A stretch of 64,000 nucleotides of DNA, taken from the IMG/VR virus record IMGVR_UViG_3300029305_005724, positions 1 to 64,000 of that record. One strand, given 5' to 3'. Of the stretch, positions 1 to 44,347 are shown piece by piece. The position numbers were made by a program, and so were the translations under genes. How positions within the stretch are numbered: position 1 is the stretch's first letter; the number at the start of each line of letters is the position of its first letter. The notes beneath the pieces were generated by a model, which did not search any database, was not told the DNA's origin, and was given only the letters and a program-made list of their open reading frames with translations. This stretch comes from a virus (lineage: Duplodnaviria; Caudoviricetes).

Positions 1-21
1 TAAGAAAGAGAGGATTCTTTT

Positions 22-1545
22 ATGGGACAAAGTATAATTAGCCGAAATAACCCTGCTGCTAGCGGGGATAAAATCGGAGATATTAAATTTACTCAGAGAG
101 AATTGAATGATGACTGGGTAAAATGTGATGGATCGATGGTAGATCCTAATGTTATAAGTAATAAGTATGCTAAATTAGCAGAAAGCGATGTATTTATTAA
201 TGGGCAGTGTAAATCAACTAATAATTATTCTATGATGAGTGATAGCATGAAAGCCAAGTATGATACGTGCACTGGTACTTGGGATGGTCTGATATTTTTC
301 TGGGACAATGGCGAGCAGAGAGGTAGCGGATTTATAAATTGCGAAAAAATAGAAGGATATATAAAATTTATTCCTAAAATTATTCTTGAAAATATAAATC
401 TCGATATCATAGAATTAGAACTTCCATCTATTAACATGGGATATACAGATGAAGAGTATCAAGAAGCAGAAACAGAATGGGGTTCATGGTATTCTAATCC
501 TGATATTACTATTAAAGATTGCGTATGTAAAAATAATATTATTGGAGTAGCATTGCATATATATAATAGTTATAGTATATATGGTGAAACTTCTGAGGAT
601 ACTATATATTTAAATACTATTGACATAGCTTCTAATAGCAATACGTATAAGATATGGACTGTTGCATCTTCTAATGGTCATAATAATTTAGTTAATTATT
701 CATATATTAAATTTAGCAAAAATCTTAACAAAGCTATATGTTTCATTGCTGGGGTTGATTATTACGGTGTGCGCAATTCTCTTAATATATATGATTTAAA
801 TAGTTCAACTATACAATATATAAACTTAGATGATTCCGTTTTTTCAATAGATTCTGATGGTACGGCGAATACATGTAGTTGTATACTGTCGGCTACAGAT
901 GAAAATGCATATGCATTACTATATTATAATGGTGATTATATGCCAAATGCCTCTGGTAGCTATGGTAAATATTACTATGCAGCAGTATATTCAACAGACG
1001 GAAGTGTTAGTGAACTATATAATCTCGATCTTAGAGATGGATCTGGTGGCCCAGCATATTCTATAAATAGTGCAACCCCAATTGCAGTAGACGAGTATGG
1101 AAGTGGTATGCTTGTCCATTATGGATATGGAGAAATGGATCATAATGGACGTGCTTATTTATACTATGATAATGAAAATAATGAACTCTCAAGGATTTCT
1201 ATATTTAATAATTATTATGAAAATGCTGCTGATGCTCCCGATTGGGATTATCATAATAAGACAGCGTATGTTTTAGAAAGTAAATATACTAAAGCATATG
1301 TATGTAAAATGACCGGAAGTACAACAGGCTATTTTATAAAAGATATTACAAATCTTAAAAGCTCTGAAATTATTGACTTGCTCAAATTTGATTATTCTCC
1401 TGATGATTCCTGGGCTGCTTCAAGTGACAAATTTGCAGTAAATAAAGATTTCGGCGATGCCTCTATTCTTATTCATAATGGGAAAATTTATGGTCCATCT
1501 TATCCCAATCTCAATGATGAGAATGCATATGTAAAGGTTAAATAA
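22..1545 (+). CDS. Tail-collar-domain fibre / receptor-binding protein, paralog 1 (no homopolymer tract)
   Basis: N-terminal GDIKFTQR..W.KCDG collar-like motif and C-terminal P..P....AYVK shared with paralogs at 2578 and 5724; aromatic/Asn-rich variable middle. Confidence 0.65.
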   Translation: MGQSIISRNNPAASGDKIGDIKFTQRELNDDWVKCDGSMVDPNVISNKYAKLAESDVFINGQCKSTNNYSMMSDSMKAKYDTCTGTWDGLIFFWDNGEQRGSGFINCEKIEGYIKFIPKIILENINLDIIELELPSINMGYTDEEYQEAETEWGSWYSNPDITIKDCVCKNNIIGVALHIYNSYSIYGETSEDTIYLNTIDIASNSNTYKIWTVASSNGHNNLVNYSYIKFSKNLNKAICFIAGVDYYGVRNSLNIYDLNSSTIQYINLDDSVFSIDSDGTANTCSCILSATDENAYALLYYNGDYMPNASGSYGKYYYAAVYSTDGSVSELYNLDLRDGSGGPAYSINSATPIAVDEYGSGMLVHYGYGEMDHNGRAYLYYDNENNELSRISIFNNYYENAADAPDWDYHNKTAYVLESKYTKAYVCKMTGSTTGYFIKDITNLKSSEIIDLLKFDYSPDDSWAASSDKFAVNKDFGDASILIHNGKIYGPSYPNLNDENAYVKVK

Positions 1546-1564
1546 AGCATAATAAAAATCAAAA

Positions 1565-1594
1565 TACCCGTAGTAGAATAATCTACTACGGGTA
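1565..1594. terminator. Bidirectional intrinsic terminator
   Basis: tacccgtagtaga-ataa-tctactacgggta hairpin between convergent genes, T-run following. Confidence 0.8.
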
Positions 1595-1603
1595 ATCTTT
1601 TTT

Positions 1604-2260
1604 TTATTTCTTCTTATTATAATTTCTCTTCTTAGGAGTTGTAGCATCTACATTTGCAACAACTACTTCATCACTAGAAGCATTAGTGGTCACAGACTCG
1701 ATTTCTGCCGGAACTACATCTTCAGCAGTGGTAATATAACCACTAGTTACATAGTCAGAACTATCTGCGCTGGAAAGCTCAGAATCTACATCCTTAGCAT
1801 CTTCAATTTTAATATCTTCAGCAGTAGTAATATTATCAGTTTCTGCAACAGAGCTATCAGTAGTATTGTTTTCATCTACTTTAACTTCAGGCTGCTCTAC
1901 AAATTCAACCTTCTGTACAGGCTCTGCCATCTTAGGAGCTACTTCCTCATCAACCTTCTTTTCTGCCATAGCTTTCTTCGAAGTTACCTTCTTGGTTGTA
2001 TCTACTACAGTTTTATTCATAGGCTGATCAAGAGTCGGCTTCTTCATAAGATGAGAATTATCAGTATAATAATTGCTCATATTAAGTCTGACAAGTGTTC
2101 CATCATCAAGAACCTCGTCAACAATAGCTCTCTTACAAAGGCAAGAAAGAATCTCTCCACTAGTAAGATATACTCCATTATATGTACCATAAAGGGGAGG
2201 AGTAAAATTACGGAGTGCTACCGTAGTTTTGATATTTACCTTTTTTCTCATAATGGCCAT
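1604..2260 (-). CDS. Hypothetical protein with acidic/low-complexity C-terminus
   Basis: ORF; start MAIMRKK preceded by AAGGAGG. Confidence 0.7.
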   Translation of the reverse strand: MAIMRKKVNIKTTVALRNFTPPLYGTYNGVYLTSGEILSCLCKRAIVDEVLDDGTLVRLNMSNYYTDNSHLMKKPTLDQPMNKTVVDTTKKVTSKKAMAEKKVDEEVAPKMAEPVQKVEFVEQPEVKVDENNTTDSSVAETDNITTAEDIKIEDAKDVDSELSSADSSDYVTSGYITTAEDVVPAEIESVTTNASSDEVVVANVDATTPKKRNYNKKK

Positions 2261-2261
2261 A

Positions 2262-2402
2262 TTAGTTAGCCTCCTTATCTTCAACTTTTTCAAGATCACG
2301 CTGATCTGTAAGATTATCTACGAAGTCAAATTCGTCACTTACGACAGCGATAAATTTATCAGATTCCATCTGCTCAAATAAAGCCTTTTCAACGTTATTC
2401 AT
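2262..2402 (-). CDS. Small acidic protein (46 aa, MNNVEKALFEQMESDK...), below ORF-track cutoff
   Basis: AAGGAGA RBS, AACA-N6-TA motif at 2429-2440 upstream, stop abuts next gene's start. Confidence 0.65.
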   Translation of the reverse strand: MNNVEKALFEQMESDKFIAVVSDEFDFVDNLTDQRDLEKVEDKEAN

Positions 2403-2504
2403 AAGACACGAATCTCCTTTCTTTAACTTAATACAATGTTCGCTTTATGAGGCTTTACGGAGAAAATTATACAAATGCTATATAAAGTTTAATGATATTT
2501 TCTC

Positions 2505-2516
2505 AACATTTTATTA
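2505..2516 (+). promoter_or_regulatory. AR9-type late promoter motif AACA-N6-TA (representative)
   Basis: Also at 2429-(minus), 5806-(minus), 11148-(minus), 15201-(minus), 15266, 17644, 18955, 21300-(minus), 27259, 31781, 36191, 37807, 39049, 54023, 56838, 58487-(minus), 58523, 58690, 61505; each oriented toward a downstream gene or RNA. Confidence 0.75.
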
Positions 2517-2577
2517 ATGAGGCGGTGGATAATATAATTATCCACCGCTATTTATTTTTGAAAGTGAGGATTTTAAT

Positions 2578-4004
2578 ATGGCTAATGCAATTCTAAGCCG
2601 AGGAAACTCCCCTATCAGGGGGGGGGGGGTAAAATAGGCGATATTAAGTACACTCAGCGTACATTAACCCCTGATTGGAAAAGGTGCGATGGTACACTTA
2701 TCGATTATATTGATATATCTCCAGAATATGCTGCACTTGCAGATGGGGATGTGTTTACTAGCGGAGAGTGTAAAACCTATCTAAATAACTATTCCAGAAT
2801 GTCTCAACAGATGAAAGACTTGTATGACTCTAAAGAGCATAGTAACGATAATTATATCTTCTTCTGGGACAATGGAAATAACCAAGGCTGTGGATTCTTG
2901 TATGAAGAATGGTCTGCAGTTCATTTTTCAAGATATATTCATATAGTCTTTGAAAAAATTGATAAAACTATTGTCGATATGAATACATTAATAGATGCTG
3001 GTAACTTTATGACTGTTGAAGATTGGAAAGGCTCACTATATTATGGATCTGAATCTCCAATATATACAAGCTTAGTGCATATATGTACATACAGAACTTG
3101 TAATAATAATTTCGCCATATTGCTTCATACGTATAAAGACTATATTAATCAAAATGGTGAAGTTTGCATTGACAATGTATATTTCTGTGGTTTAAATTTA
3201 GAAACTGGTGTATCGAATTTTAGAGTTTCTAGCACTCTAGCAGATGGTGGTGGATATGGTTCTGATATCAATAATCATAGATTTGCAATTTCAAAAAATT
3301 GTGATTCGGCATTATATATAAGTATATGGGATGTTATTGAGCATAATGATCATAAACCCGGTGTTATTAGTATAAGATTTACAAATAATATGGCATATAT
3401 TAGTGATTTTTTGTATGATTCATGGTTTAACCTGCCGCAATATTCAGACACATCATTAGTTGTAACAGAAAACGATTGCTATGGAATTGTACGATCTTAT
3501 AAAAATGATGATATTTTAGATAGTCAAGTATATCTATTTTATAGCAATAGAGATCCTATTGAATTTGAGGATGATTTTGTTGATATAGTGTTTACAAATG
3601 GTTATGCTTTACTGCATAATAATATCCCATATGTTTCTTATACTGCAACAGATTCAGCTTTAAGTACAAACGAGTACTTGATAAATATGATAGATAATAG
3701 CACTATAGTTCTTAGTTCTAGAATGGCTATTAATACTTATAAATACTATTTAGAATCTGATTATTATGAGAAAAAATATTTGATTAATAATATTGGTAGG
3801 GCTGTTGAAATTTCAGACTCTATATCTCTAGAAGAGATTGTAAATAAAGCAATGTCTGGCGGTGATATATCTTTAAATAGAAAACTCGTAAAAGAATATC
3901 AATTTGGTAATGAAAAATTTCTTTATTTTCCGAAAGATAAATCACTTTTTGGTCCTTCGCTTCCAGATGATGATTCTGGATATGCGTATGTAAAGACGGA
4001 ATAA
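2578..4004 (+). pseudogene. Tail-collar fibre paralog 2, frameshifted (phase-OFF) at a G12 tract
   Basis: ATG 2578 (MANAILSRGNSPIRGGG) runs into TAG 2635-2637; the -1 frame continues KIGDIKYTQRTLTPDWKRCDG into ORF 2751..4004; G10 or G13 restores one gene. Confidence 0.85.
2618..2629 (+). repeat. Poly-G (G12) slippage tract
   Basis: Directly visible; unusual in an AT-rich genome. Confidence 0.95.
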
Positions 4005-4043
4005 TATATAAATTCCTTTTATAATATGCAATAAATTAAAAAT

Positions 4044-4071
4044 CCCCATAGAGGTTTCGGCCTCTATGGGG
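4044..4071. terminator. Intrinsic terminator hairpin
   Basis: ccccatagagg-tttcgg-cctctatgggg. Confidence 0.75.
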
Positions 4072-4191
4072 TATATTATCTATAGAGAGGAATTTACGTA
4101 ACACCCCTGTCAGTAAATATCTATAGGTAATATCAAAAAGAAAGAGGTGGATAGTTTATTTATCCACCTCCAATAAATTAATATAAAAATA

Positions 4192-5724
4192 TTATTTTAC
4201 TTTTACATGACCATATGTATACGTGGGAAGAGTTGGAATTGATTCCAGATTGGTAACTATACAGTTTTGAAACCACAATTCATCAGCATCTCCAAAATCT
4301 AGATCTGCATTATTTAGGGTTTCGAAACGTTTTGAACTGATTTTGTAATTATTAAGGTCTAAATTATTGATGTCTCCATCCTTGATATACCACAAATATG
4401 TGCTGGAATCATCAGTATATGCAAGATAATATTTATCCTTATAATGAATACTAAAGCATTCAACACCAGTATATCCATAATAATCGGTAATTAAAAACGG
4501 ATGATTTGCATCAACGTCCACAGCATTTATTTCATTTCCTTCATTATTACAAATAGAAAGCGTATTAGCAGTATAATTAGCATTAATTATATAAATATTA
4601 TTATTTATGATAAAGAAAATAGGAAGTGTAGAGTTATCATTTAACACAATCATAGAACCATTTTTTGTGCAACATCCTGATCCTGGATTTACATACGATC
4701 TCCAAGTATTATTATTTTCATATTTTGAATGAGAATAGATTGTATTGGTTAATATATCCCCATCGTAATCTAATGTAAAACTATACCAAGGACTATCATC
4801 TGTAACTCCATATACTGGTATTATAGTTGAAAAGCTGTTATTGCTAAAATTCATGCCTATAGAGTTAGGATGACTAAATGATGCTCCATAGCCATCATTA
4901 ATATCAATATCTATATCTGTTTTTATATCAAATATAAAAGAACTATTTTTATCAATTGTATTCAACACAGAGCTTCTTAATTCGATTCTAAAATTAAGTT
5001 TTTCTTCAATATTTGACTCATAAGCTTGATCTATCGTTTCACTGGATAAATTTCCACAAACAGCGGCCGAGTCATCTTTAACATATGATATAGATTGTAT
5101 AGCATTATAATTATCATCAGTAAATACGACATTTATCATAAATAGCCTAATATCTATACATATAGTACTATTATTTAAATTAAACTGATCGTCCTGAACC
5201 CAGTTTAATTCTAAATTTATTTCGCTACTATTAGCCATTGCTACTATAATAAGTGTTCTTGAACTTTTGTCTAATCTATGAGCTATGATTTTAATATTAC
5301 TACCAGGGATGGATGAATCTCCAAAAATACCTCTGGTTTCTTTAACACCATTATTTATCATAGCAATACTTAGTCCTTCTTGATAATTTAACAGAGCATA
5401 GCGAATAAAATTGTCACTGTCTATATAATAATTTTGATCGAAGAAACTAAATGATTCCTCTGGATTAAGGGTTGTTAAATCAAAATCCTCATATCCTATA
5501 TATTTTTCATTTATCGTAGAATCCAATAGATCCTTTGTTCCGGCAGAATCTTTCGAAACTAAATTCATATATTCTTCACTGGCTCTATCAAGATCTATCT
5601 CAGAGCCATCACATTCTAAAAGTCCATCTTCGAGGTCAGTACGTTGCGTGAACTTAATATCACCGATGTACCCCCCCCCCTGAGATGTTTTCGTACTTCG
5701 GCTAATTATCATTCCATGTGCCAT
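4192..5724 (-). CDS. Tail-collar fibre paralog 3, in frame (phase-ON) through a G10 tract
   Basis: MAHGMIISRSTKTSQGGGYIGDIKFTQR...ECDG; C-terminus PTLP...GHVKVK. Confidence 0.7.
   Translation of the reverse strand: MAHGMIISRSTKTSQGGGYIGDIKFTQRTDLEDGLLECDGSEIDLDRASEEYMNLVSKDSAGTKDLLDSTINEKYIGYEDFDLTTLNPEESFSFFDQNYYIDSDNFIRYALLNYQEGLSIAMINNGVKETRGIFGDSSIPGSNIKIIAHRLDKSSRTLIIVAMANSSEINLELNWVQDDQFNLNNSTICIDIRLFMINVVFTDDNYNAIQSISYVKDDSAAVCGNLSSETIDQAYESNIEEKLNFRIELRSSVLNTIDKNSSFIFDIKTDIDIDINDGYGASFSHPNSIGMNFSNNSFSTIIPVYGVTDDSPWYSFTLDYDGDILTNTIYSHSKYENNNTWRSYVNPGSGCCTKNGSMIVLNDNSTLPIFFIINNNIYIINANYTANTLSICNNEGNEINAVDVDANHPFLITDYYGYTGVECFSIHYKDKYYLAYTDDSSTYLWYIKDGDINNLDLNNYKISSKRFETLNNADLDFGDADELWFQNCIVTNLESIPTLPTYTYGHVKVK
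5671..5680 (-). repeat. Poly-G (G10 on the coding strand) slippage tract
   Basis: C10 on + strand, same position relative to the GDIK motif as the G12 tract. Confidence 0.95.
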
Positions 5725-5829
5725 AAAAGTTTCCTCACTTTCATTTATATTTTATAAAAAAAAATAAATAAGAGATGGTAAATATGTTTACCACCTCCAG
5801 AATTTTATTAAAATGTTCAAATCATAAAA

Positions 5830-5861: not shown

Positions 5862-6545
5862 CCGTTCAGATACTCTGCTGTCCACAACTGTACTGGTCGG
5901 AGCTCAGCCGATTCAAGTCGCTAGTTTTCTGTGATGTTCTCTTCTTTCCCGTATCTATTCCGCTACTTTCGTAGGCTTTCTTCGCCTCTCCTTTTCGAAA
6001 CATTACGTGACTTTTCCATCCCAACTCAGCTCTCGTTATTTCTTATGCTTGCTCCTCCCTATCGACGCAATTCTGCAGATCTCCCTGCCTCTCCATATCT
6101 AAACTTTTCAGATTGAGCTATTTCGTCTGCTAGGCATGTCTTTTCCTGCTCGCTTAACCTCAAATCTGATCCTTTGCCGCGCGTTTTGTTTCCTGTCGTC
6201 GCCATCCCATGGCTCCTCACTACTTCTCCACGCCACTCGGTTCGCTTGAGTATCTTATCTAATCCACCTCATTTGAGTTTAGATCATCTAACTTCCCAGC
6301 TTCCCCGTAGCCTTTCGCCGTGACTCATTTTGAATCCACGCCATTCCATGGCTATTCAAGACTAGTATGTTCAACTCCGCTTCAATTTTTGTCTTTTCAA
6401 ATCTAGTCCATCTCTAGTGAACTCCCGTCAACTCCTAGCCATTTCTTTTATCGGCTGATTGTCTCCGGTCTACTCCACATCACGTCGGATGCATTCGATT
6501 AAACTCCTCGCCTTTCCATCTGACTTCCCAGCGTTTCCGTATCTT
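5862..6545 (-). ncRNA. Candidate RAMP-associated degenerate repeat RNA array
   Basis: Non-coding, GC-richer than flanks, purine-rich on minus strand, apparent ~5-nt periodicity, recurring 10-14 nt blocks; lies between the RAMP stop and a terminator. Confidence 0.55.
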
Positions 6546-6606
6546 TTTAATAAACCTGAAGAATATTCTTACGGTTTGAAATAATTCTTCTCTTAATCAG
6601 AATATA

Positions 6607-7521
6607 TTAGTCTTCAGATTTATCTACAGTATAAGGAAGATATCTTTCATCAATCTCTCTCCAACGGCAAATTCCAAGACCAGAATTTCTCCATCCAGAA
6701 AGCCCATGTACTGCTGCATAATTAAGCCACTCAATAATAGCGGGCTTAAACTTCAACGAAGTCATACCGATAGTAAATCTGATACGGCTTCCCGCGGGAA
6801 TCATTTCGCTAGCGGCAATTGCAACTCTTTCACCACTAGGACCACTTGTTCGAAGACAACGCTGAACAATTCTAAGATTTCCATTTTCATCTCTTGAAGG
6901 AATCATGGTGACTCCGTCATCGTCAAGATAAAAATCAGGAATCTTAATAGGAATGCGTCGAGGAAATACAAAAATGCATCCATCGACGACCTTTTTATAG
7001 GCTTTAATTTTAGAAGATTCTGTTGCGGTGGATTTCTTTCCATTCTCATCAGTATCTTCTGCTTTAGACAGCAATCCACAAGAATCTTTAAAGAATCCGC
7101 GAAGCTGATAATTGTAGTAGAAAGGCATGTTTTCTTTCTTCTCATAAATACGAGGATTAGTCACATCGTCTCTACTCTTCTTACGATAGTATTTTTCATC
7201 TATGATCTCAATATCAGAATCGAGAGTATCCTCAAATTTCTGCAAACTGGTATCATAGAGAAATGTACCTTTAGGATATACGCAAAGCTGCTTATCCATA
7301 ACACCATCAGTGCCAATAGCAGCAATCTCTTCTTCCATAGACCTTGCATCAGGTGCCTTGGAAGCTATGTATTCGCCCAGAATATCTTTATTATTAGGGC
7401 TTGTTCCGAGTGCTTTTTCAAGCCACTCCATTTCCACATGCATGTAGTGCATAGGAATTTTGAGTTCTGCTGTAGAGCTCCATGCTCCGCCATTTACGAT
7501 AGTTGTTTCTTTAGTACTCAT
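6607..7521 (-). CDS. Stand-alone Cas7/RAMP-like protein
   Basis: N-terminal beta-strand + LGT.P, 'YQLRGFFKD' helix, QR.LR...G.R..IA.SE.IPAG, C-terminal Gly-rich loop HGLSGWRNSGLG; start MSTKE with RBS. Confidence 0.7.
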   Translation of the reverse strand: MSTKETTIVNGGAWSSTAELKIPMHYMHVEMEWLEKALGTSPNNKDILGEYIASKAPDARSMEEEIAAIGTDGVMDKQLCVYPKGTFLYDTSLQKFEDTLDSDIEIIDEKYYRKKSRDDVTNPRIYEKKENMPFYYNYQLRGFFKDSCGLLSKAEDTDENGKKSTATESSKIKAYKKVVDGCIFVFPRRIPIKIPDFYLDDDGVTMIPSRDENGNLRIVQRCLRTSGPSGERVAIAASEMIPAGSRIRFTIGMTSLKFKPAIIEWLNYAAVHGLSGWRNSGLGICRWREIDERYLPYTVDKSED

Positions 7522-7709
7522 TTTTCTTCTCCTTTTCATTTGGTAGTTTTAGGATTTTACAAAGGATAGTTGTACTATTTTCTATCTTTGTCAATATTAT
7601 AATATATGATGGAAATTTAATTTCAAATAAGCATATACTATATTTATAGAAAGGGCGTAATCTAAAGCCCTAAAAATATCCACAAAAATAAAATAAAGGA
7701 GAATGAAAA

Positions 7710-43082: not shown

Positions 43083-43102
43083 ACAATTTGGAGGATAAAA
43101 AG

Positions 43103-44347
43103 ATGGCAGGTATTTTATCTCAGCAGTTTAGAGCAACCGTTTCTAAACATAAAGACTTTCGAATGAAAGATGAATCGGCCGCTGGAGTTGGATACTCTAC
43201 TGGCTTTCTTAATTTTGATTTCATGAATGGAACTGTTGTTCACGTAAAATCAAAAGAAAGAAATTTTAATTATTATTCAGTAGGAATTCAAGATGGATGT
43301 CTTGTAATGCTTATTGGTAGATCTGGATGTGGTAAAACTACATGGGCAGTTCAGACCGCATCTAATATTGTAAGAAATTTTCCGACCGCTTGCGTGTTTC
43401 ATGACGATATTGAAGGTGGTCTTACAGAATATAGAAAAGAACTTCTTAGTGGATTCCATGGAGAAGATCTTCAGCTAAAATACCTATCGAGAAATACTGG
43501 TATTACGGCTGAAAACTTTTATGAGCGTCTTCGTATGATTCATGATCTTAAGATGGAGAATCGTGAAGACTATGAATACGATACGGGTTACTTTGATTCT
43601 CATGGTGAAAGAATTTATAAGCTTGAACCCACTGTATACATTCTAGACTCTGTTGCACTCCTAATGCCTGCACAGTATACTGAAGAGGAAGAACTCTCTG
43701 GTTCTATGAGTGCTACAGCTGCCGCAAAAACAAATTCTATGAGCTTTAAAAGAATCATTCCTATGCTTAAGAGTGCTAATATTATTCTTCTTATGATTAA
43801 TCATATTAATAAGAAAATTGATATTAATCCTATGCAGAGAACAAAAGCTCAGGTATCTTATCTAAAACAGGATGAATCGCTTCCTGGAGGCAATACAATT
43901 ATTTATCTCACAAACGTGCTTCTTCGTTTTGATGATAATTCGAAGATGAAAGAAGATGAAGCATTTGGCATTTCTGGAAACTTGGTAGATGTTACCCTTG
44001 TCAAGTCCAGAAATAATAGAGCTGGTAAAACTTGTACCCTTGTTTTTGATCAGAATAAAGGATTTGATCCGGAACTTTCATTATTTGTGATGCTGAAAAA
44101 TGCAAAGAAAATTAATGGAGCTGGTGCATACCTTTATATTGGAGACAAGTCTGAATATAAATTCTCCCAGAAGAACTTTAAAGAGAAATTAAGAGAAATC
44201 CCTGAACTTCGTAATGCATTTATTGAAGAAGTCATGGTAATGCTTAAGGAAGATCTTGATAAGAACGATTCTGGAGATGAAAACGATAATTTCGATTATT
44301 CGTTGAGCAGCGAAATCTTGTCGAAATTCAATCCGTCTCAAATGTAA
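43103..44347 (+). CDS. RecA/UvsX-family recombinase
   Basis: GRSGCGKTT, DIEGG, ILDSVA, INH, PGG, KSRNN. Confidence 0.85.
   Translation: MAGILSQQFRATVSKHKDFRMKDESAAGVGYSTGFLNFDFMNGTVVHVKSKERNFNYYSVGIQDGCLVMLIGRSGCGKTTWAVQTASNIVRNFPTACVFHDDIEGGLTEYRKELLSGFHGEDLQLKYLSRNTGITAENFYERLRMIHDLKMENREDYEYDTGYFDSHGERIYKLEPTVYILDSVALLMPAQYTEEEELSGSMSATAAAKTNSMSFKRIIPMLKSANIILLMINHINKKIDINPMQRTKAQVSYLKQDESLPGGNTIIYLTNVLLRFDDNSKMKEDEAFGISGNLVDVTLVKSRNNRAGKTCTLVFDQNKGFDPELSLFVMLKNAKKINGAGAYLYIGDKSEYKFSQKNFKEKLREIPELRNAFIEEVMVMLKEDLDKNDSGDENDNFDYSLSSEILSKFNPSQM

Follow-up and report, generated by a model that had tools for sequence, protein, structure and literature searches.

An uncultured 224-kb AR9/PBS1-like jumbo phage from the gut carries four paralogous genes with a putative role in host attachment, two of them containing poly-G tracts and two flanking one shared promoter core, and we put at roughly two in three the probability that these receptor-binding paralogs are switched by poly-G slippage (paralogs 2 and 3) together with inversion of the promoter core (paralogs 1 and 4). 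Coordinates below refer to the window, the whole 64,000-nucleotide stretch that was analysed, or, where marked G000, to the 224-kb contig.

Paralog 1 (22..1545, plus strand; 507 aa) lacks a promoter of its own, paralog 2 (2578..4004, plus strand; 474 aa with a G10 tract) is frameshifted in the window assembly and paralog 3 (4192..5724, minus strand; 510 aa) is in frame there. The preliminary description of this DNA counted three paralogs; the set is four, as paralog 4 (G000 222439-223865, minus strand) lies at the opposite end of that contig, head-to-head with paralog 1. The common N-terminal GDIK...CDG motif and the C-terminal (Y/H)VK were present as described, while the divergence of the middles held for paralog 3 (~22% identity) but not for paralogs 1 and 2, which align at 35% over ~230 aa. 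Among 12 homologs the ends are constant and the middles unrelated. Paralogs 1 and 4 also have a common 3' end (1493..1545, plus strand; 53 nt, 94%), which forms a second, outer inverted repeat.

The inner repeat is perfect over 152 bp: one arm (1..152, plus strand) contains the ribosome-binding site and first 43 codons of paralog 1, and the other opens paralog 4. The arms enclose a 214-bp core that bears one late promoter. The core is missing from the window assembly and present in contigs L001-L004, L010 and L012, and the 224-kb contig breaks exactly at both arms, its two ends being the switch. The arms contain a short, imperfect dyad that is conserved. The core promoter points towards paralog 1 in L001, L002, L005 and L010 and towards paralog 4 in L003, L004, L011 and L012, with L005 and L011 coming from one sample. 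These orientations, like the tract lengths given below, are differences among assembly consensus sequences, the same-phage assemblies compared being 99.85-100% identical. A segment bounded by inverted repeats, as in Gin/Cin/Hin-type systems, was therefore found in both orientations at the level of contigs, where an assembler could join it arbitrarily.

Arbitrary joining is what one alternative invokes: the poly-G switches would be real, paralogs 1 and 4 constitutive, the repeat the product of recent duplication or conversion, and the orientations a product of assembly. Such joining is possible because a short read is roughly equal in length to a repeat of 152-171 bp, or shorter; the repeats also match or exceed usual k-mer lengths, most same-phage contigs stop within the second arm, and an intact invertase was not found in the genome. 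We nevertheless consider this reading rather unlikely. In a related 244-kb phage, contigs L022 and L023, which are 99.99% identical and come from two samples, each read across both 170-bp arms and carry the core in opposite orientations. The layout recurs in a further relative with a 171-bp repeat, the core measuring 214-246 bp across these phages, and every core, in the phage and both relatives, contains a single strong match to the late promoter, pointing in one direction. The arms are, moreover, identical within each genome (116/116) and diverge between genomes (113/116 and 79-80/116). No early-type promoter match was detected in the cores of the phage and its relatives, and a bidirectional or early core promoter was rejected on the single, one-direction late match per core. 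Paralog 1, previously regarded as fixed, is thus probably not fixed, sharing with paralog 4 an apparently invertible single-promoter core; it would be ON only when that promoter points its way.

Inversion of the core may be catalysed by a UvsX/RecA-like recombinase encoded in the window (43088..44347, plus strand; phrog_97, E 4.8e-36), our candidate enzyme for this step. The motifs R-x-S and DRLGR hold the catalytic residues of serine invertases and resolvases; the one resolvase-like ORF (G000 138024-138488), about 85 kb from the switch, lacks both and ends before the HTH domain, and it was rejected as an active invertase. No hix/gix-type crossover site was found in a consensus search, and no tyrosine or large serine recombinase scored above cut-off, the tyrosine recombinase search giving one weak sub-cut-off match in an unrelated-looking ORF. 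Nor was a shufflon-type arrangement found, in which short repeated sites lie beside a tyrosine recombinase gene.

The proteins were first labelled tail-collar fibres, a label that does not fit well: no protein-family search of the paralogs gave a family above its cut-off, scores for Pfam PF07484 Collar stayed below the 24-bit gathering cut-off (best relative E 0.041), and the body seems to be globular and rich in beta structure. Collar was still the most frequent sub-threshold Pfam match (3/17) and the top named atlas lead, with Collar clusters as atlas neighbours at scores of 0.78-0.81. Like Collar proteins, the paralogs have those atlas neighbours and an N-terminal G-D-I-K...W..C-D/N-G motif; unlike them, they score below cut-off and carry a large beta-rich insert instead of a fibrous shaft. 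Most top PDB matches of a weak structure model (pLDDT 52) were propellers, although TM to solved propellers reached at most 0.27; an atlas model compared with a propeller at TM 0.44-0.55, and AlphaFold with four sequences gave pLDDT 32. The proteins resemble collar-like anchors around a hypervariable body, which is probably a beta-propeller, more than they do long fibres.

A tail role is suggested by the late promoters, the Collar leads, the constant ends and unrelated middles of the homologs, and the gene neighbourhood. In the relatives a small gene comes after each arm gene, the two small genes being related to each other, and the copy examined matches a tail-fibre-assembly family (phrog_863, E 4.5e-7); the paralog N-terminus also resembles that of the tail protein targeted by a diversity-generating retroelement (DGR) in the same genome. 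Together with the collar-like motif and leads, these points argue against the switches acting on other late products, such as head-surface proteins, injected proteins or glycan hydrolases, varied against host defence. That reading, which we hold to be unlikely, draws on the lack of any family above cut-off, on glycoside hydrolases and lyases among the fold matches, and on the position of the genes outside any recognisable tail operon.

About equally improbable, in our assessment, is a flip of the core by a site-specific recombinase of the host, or by a divergent enzyme of the phage, at a short site within the repeat. The presence of the resolvase-like ORF and the conserved dyad would suit it; the missing catalytic motifs and HTH domain, the outcome of the crossover-site and recombinase searches, and an identity that extends over all 152 bp count against it.

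The poly-G tracts were as described. Besides G12 at 2618..2629 (plus strand) in paralog 2 and G10 at 5671..5680 (minus strand; C10 on the plus strand) in paralog 3, no G/C run in the window exceeds five; the equivalent place in paralog 1 holds G4 (64-67). From the ATG at 2578, the G12 tract sends paralog 2 into TAG at 2635-2637; the gene is in frame with G10, out of frame with G11 and G12, and by the same arithmetic in frame with G13, so that paralog 2 would be OFF here and paralog 3, in frame with G10, ON. Across 224 kb no G/C run measures 6-9 and four measure 10-12, beyond chance given an expectation of <0.01, and the remaining two long runs (G000 151542 and G000 222321) also stand at regulatory positions. 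Glycine codon bias was ruled out as the origin of the runs, GGG making up 5% of glycine codons and all 17 other glycine runs using mixed codons. A small C-rich/G-rich stem occurs at the place of the tract in paralogs 1 and 2 and in the relatives.

Both tracts are real and unstable, their lengths varying among near-identical assemblies and flipping the frame. For paralog 2, G10 (ON) occurs in five contigs (L006, L008, L009, L011 and L020), G11 (OFF) in two (L010 and L012) and G12 in two (the window assembly and L007, where the tract lies 4 nt from the contig end). Paralog 3 has G10 in three (the window assembly, L006 and L007), G11 in L008, G12 in L009 and at least G11 in L011, where the contig ends. 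Over 61 kb, 10 of 11 indels fall in three G/C tracts, alongside seven substitutions; A/T control runs, which are shorter (7-9), differed once, at a T8. In two independent assemblies of a strain ~95% identical, an out-of-frame paralog 2 tract precedes an intact 441-aa frame whose middle is swapped. Pseudogene decay of paralog 2 was rejected, the gene being intact in 10 contigs. It is very unlikely that the differences are sequencing or PCR stutter in four constitutive genes, with the G runs serving as a glycine linker or a small RNA hairpin arm: in-frame G10 is the commonest paralog 2 allele, the stem lies at the tract and the T8 also varied, but consensus lengths differ by up to 2 bases, GGG is avoided elsewhere, the second strain is independently out of frame and the other long runs sit at regulatory positions.

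Each tract-bearing gene has its own match to the AR9 late-promoter consensus, AACA-N6-TA (PMC5449584). In paralog 2 the promoter (2505..2516, plus strand) is followed by a hairpin and U-rich run (2521..2559, plus strand; -20.7 kcal/mol) between promoter and ribosome-binding site, a candidate attenuator or 5' stabiliser; in paralog 3 the AR9-type promoter (5806..5817, minus strand) likewise precedes a hairpin and then a U-run (5771..5798, minus strand). With such an element after each promoter, expression may be low or differently controlled.

We propose that all four are late virion proteins, each with a short N-terminal collar-like anchor, a hypervariable receptor-binding body and a C-terminal closing strand, and each under a random heritable switch operating within a lineage at some rate. 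Paralogs 2 and 3, with their own late promoters, would switch by replication slippage in the poly-G of the glycine linker before the anchor (G10/G13 ON, G11/G12 OFF). Paralogs 1 and 4, which face away from each other, would share the one late promoter on the 214-bp core, and crossover anywhere in the 152-bp repeats would flip the core and decide which of the two receives the promoter, the likeliest route being homologous recombination involving the UvsX-like protein or template switching, not an invertase. As many as eight combinations of ON and OFF attachment proteins could result, alongside a DGR-diversified tail protein. The preliminary description assumed that no DGR was involved; the genome carries an intact one aimed at another tail protein (G000 150007-151458), of which no exact record was found, and no variable repeat matching its template repeat occurs in paralogs 1-4. 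For the wider proposal we would give even odds: that AR9-like lytic jumbo phages in ruminant-type gut samples use an invertase-free flip of a ~0.2-kb core with a single late promoter by homologous recombination between 150-170-bp repeats (the common 5' ends of two head-to-head adhesin genes), supplemented in the present lineage by poly-G-switched copies and by a DGR with a gating poly-C leader, which would give one genome three independent randomisers of host attachment. The co-occurrence of slippage, a DGR and inversion in a single large lytic phage suggests intense selection by hosts whose surfaces vary.

The poly-G mechanism is not new for phages, hypermutable polyG tracts in receptor-binding protein (RBP) genes having been described in Campylobacter Fletchervirus (Sorensen et al. 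2021, via PMC8713573; bioRxiv 10.1101/2025.10.21.683753). Both cases involve a lytic phage with several RBP-like paralogs, two of them with an early, frame-setting long G run (7-11 there, 10-12 here) that, in our assembly consensus sequences, varies among near-identical genomes. The present case differs in its AR9-like jumbo phage genome, its unrelated proteins, its remaining paralogs, which are apparently inversion-switched and not fixed, and in being known from sequence and not from a phenotype. A tblastn search with paralog 2 for homology to Fletchervirus RBP1-4 gave no match among 50,697 phage records, and sequence searches of viral and metagenome contig collections, in which near-identical records may be missing, returned no related loci. 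Poly-G switching, known from Campylobacter phages, is extended here to AR9-like jumbo phages; the more important part is the probable promoter flip.

Invertible tail-fibre segments are known from Mu (G/Gin) and P1 (C/Cin), and promoter inversion from Salmonella Hin (PMC8987985). As in Mu and P1, inverted-repeat inversion attaches either of two variable bodies to a constant 5' part, and as with Hin the promoter rides on the flipped piece. Unlike Gin, Cin and Hin with their short crossover sites, the arms here are 152-171 bp of perfect homology, neither an adjacent nor an intact invertase was found, the two genes are complete and are not part of the 214-246-bp core that flips, and the promoter is a phage late promoter. 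A literature search of incomplete coverage found no described phage late promoter inverting between two complete RBP genes without an invertase. Screens for an invertase beside short repeats would overlook such loci, and assemblers break at them; at 0.5 kb, the switch cassette is small enough for a direct plasmid test. A similar layout is that of Campylobacter fetus sap, where inversion of the S-layer promoter places one invertible promoter between opposed paralogs with conserved 5' ends. Switching at sap has been studied in recA mutants and is possible without RecA (PMC5634654). Here, too, opposed paralogs with common 5' ends flank an apparently invertible segment that bears the only promoter, but in a phage and on a ~0.2-kb core, whereas sap serves a bacterial surface layer with a kilobase segment and more paralogs.

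Runs of G or C exceed five bases at only two places in the window, G12 at 2618-2629 and C10 at 5671-5680, corresponding to tracts in p2 and p3, two of four paralogous genes (p1 to p4) for probable attachment proteins. With G12, as in this assembly, the p2 frame from the ATG at 2578 ends at the TAG at 2635; G10 gives a protein of 474 aa, and the frame is lost with G11 or G12. The p3 gene (4192-5724, minus strand) is in frame with G10, and p1 (22-1545) has G4 at the equivalent position. The 223,865-bp genome contains four G/C runs of 10-12 bases and none of 6-9 (expectation <0.01). Glycine coding can be dismissed as the source of the long G runs because GGG is rare (174 of 3485 Gly codons) and codons are mixed in all 17 other stretches of Gly. 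At codons 11-16 of p1/p4, p2 and relatives, the G run forms the 3′ arm of a small C-rich/G-rich stem (z of about −2 to −2.8; window 40-80, 1275-1316 in the same-phage contig L020 and 10019-10059 in L022, from a related 244-kb phage), which may have seeded the tract or may serve as a recognition dyad.

For comparison, tract lengths were taken from contigs that other assemblies gave for this phage (99.85-100% identity), all lengths being assembly consensus. The p2 tract is G10 in L006, L008, L009, L011 and L020, G11 in L010 and L012, and G12 in the window assembly and, near the contig end, in L007; the p3 tract is G10 in the window assembly, L006 and L007, G11 in L008, G12 in L009 and at least G11 in L011. 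The p2/p3 combinations seen are ON/ON, OFF/ON and ON/OFF, ON denoting an in-frame tract, and 10 of the 11 indels across 61 kb fall in three G/C tracts. The anticipated difference in tract length among related genomes was thus borne out at the consensus level, A/T control runs being shorter, and we place the probability that the p2 and p3 tracts are true switches near 0.9. In a diverged strain (L017/L018; flanks ~95% identical) the p2 site retains G10, which is out of frame there and precedes an intact frame of 441 aa whose middle differs; here (about 1250-2320) the p2 middle is swapped cassette-like between conserved 5′ and 3′ parts.

Relatives carry the invertible p1/p4-type pair with G4, and p2 and p3 are missing from the syntenic place; these two would seem to be copies made later, each with a promoter of its own, in which G4 would have expanded into a slippage switch. 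Beside the cassette, two genes annotated without function (window 1604-2402, minus strand), one of 218 aa that has an acidic tail and one of 46 aa, are conserved in related phages, as are, in the related phage, a 304-aa ORF (66% protein identity) and part of the non-coding stretch beyond it (5862-7539, minus strand).

An RNA polymerase subunit of the phage matches AR9, PBS1 and related jumbo phages, and the AR9 late promoter consensus, AACA-N6-T(A/G) (PMC5449584), is enriched: 21 of 28 AT-rich matches are intergenic, against an 11% background, and 18 lie upstream of a same-strand gene. A hairpin with a U-rich run, which may attenuate expression or stabilise the message, separates promoter and RBS in all five paralog units examined (window 2521-2559 and 5771-5798, the p1/p4 core, L022, and L024 from a further relative). 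These hairpins are strong and differ in sequence among three lineages; other late promoters lack the arrangement, except at 222429 of the genome record. Just before a late promoter, at a distance of 2-3 nt, lies a poly-C run (genome 222321-222331), which is C11 here and C10 in L002; its syntenic counterparts in the related phage, with a different gene downstream, are C10 and C9 (L022 15530 and L023 7982); it is a possible promoter-strength switch.

The preliminary description took p1 to be fixed, which is probably wrong. At its far end the contig repeats window 26-152 in reverse complement, and there the fourth paralog, p4 (476 aa, 31% identity to p1), starts. In other assemblies p4 and p1 stand head-to-head, and a 214-bp core between them is flanked by a perfect inverted repeat of 152 bp, which comprises the RBS and 43 codons. 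The core holds a single strong late-promoter match, in one direction, and no early-type match. This promoter faces p1 in L001, L002, L005 and L010, and p4 in L003, L004, L011 and L012, the opposite contigs L005 and L011 coming from one sample. By themselves the core joins may be arbitrary, because the repeat is about one read in length. That the flip is real is argued by the related 244-kb phage, of the same layout (170-bp arms, 246-bp core with one promoter), in which two 99.99% identical contigs traverse both arms with opposite cores; by the further relative, again of this layout (171-bp arms); and by the arms, which match at 116/116 positions within each genome and at 113/116 and 79-80/116 between genomes, as expected of repeated exchange between arms. 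We therefore consider core inversion probable. Although the record is listed as linear and 90% complete, its ends (positions 1 and 223865) join via the core, which makes a complete circular genome of ~224.1 kb probable. Between the relatives, the small genes that follow the arm genes have exchanged sides (L022 7859-12157 versus L024 7894-11725), which suggests an outer, nested inversion via shared 3′ ends; in the present phage p1 and p4 have 53 nt in common at their 3′ ends.

Intact serine recombinases carry catalytic Arg and Ser residues and the DRLGR arginines. The only resolvase-like ORF (138024-138488 of the genome record, in its part L015), about 85 kb from the cassette, is degenerate, lacking all of these and ending before the HTH domain; an open frame just past it runs into a 347-aa ORF, a possible frameshifted fusion. 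A family search of the genome gave no tyrosine or large serine recombinase above cut-off, a search for hix/gix-like sites found none, and the genes adjoining the relative's cassette offered neither a family match nor a counterpart here pointing to a recombinase. Since no intact invertase or crossover site was found and a UvsX-like recombinase (43088-44347) is encoded, the likeliest route is homologous recombination or template switching across the long arms, which would flip the core.

Contrary to the proposal that the phage switches without a DGR, an intact one is encoded outside the window (genome 147630-151570, L014), with a reverse transcriptase (147630-149117) and a 155-bp TR/VR pair in which 23 of 24 template-to-variable differences are at adenines. 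Its target is a tail protein (phrog_5302), with an N-terminal M-G-x-x-x-x-S-R motif similar to that of the paralogs. A 39-codon leader ORF with a C10 tract runs into the start of the target only when the tract is C10 or C13, a candidate translational-coupling switch.

For the paralogs themselves, Pfam and PHROG gave no family above cut-off. Collar leads, as the commonest weak match (3 of 17 members, best E 0.041) and top named atlas lead (0.78-0.81); the collar assignment stays below cut-off, and the term "fibre" is doubtful. Among 12 homologs the first 38 and last ~16 residues are nearly constant and the middles unrelated; a 17-sequence structure model (pLDDT 52) shows repeated antiparallel sheets, its best PDB matches being mostly beta-propellers at low TM. 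Downstream of each arm gene the relatives carry one of two small genes related to each other, and the one queried matches a tail-fibre-assembly family. We read the paralogs most readily as an anchor module interrupted by a globular, putatively receptor-binding insert, and an adhesin role is quite probable.

The poly-G switching of p2 and p3 is an already known mechanism, described for receptor-binding proteins of Fletchervirus (PMC8713573; bioRxiv 10.1101/2025.10.21.683753). In its action the p1/p4 unit resembles the inversion systems Mu G and Hin (PMC8987985), but differs in its lack of a catalytically intact invertase and of a hix/gix-like crossover site. The part of the literature covered by our search showed no phage precedent for an inversion of this type. 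The p1/p4 unit has its closest likeness in the promoter inversion of C. fetus sap.
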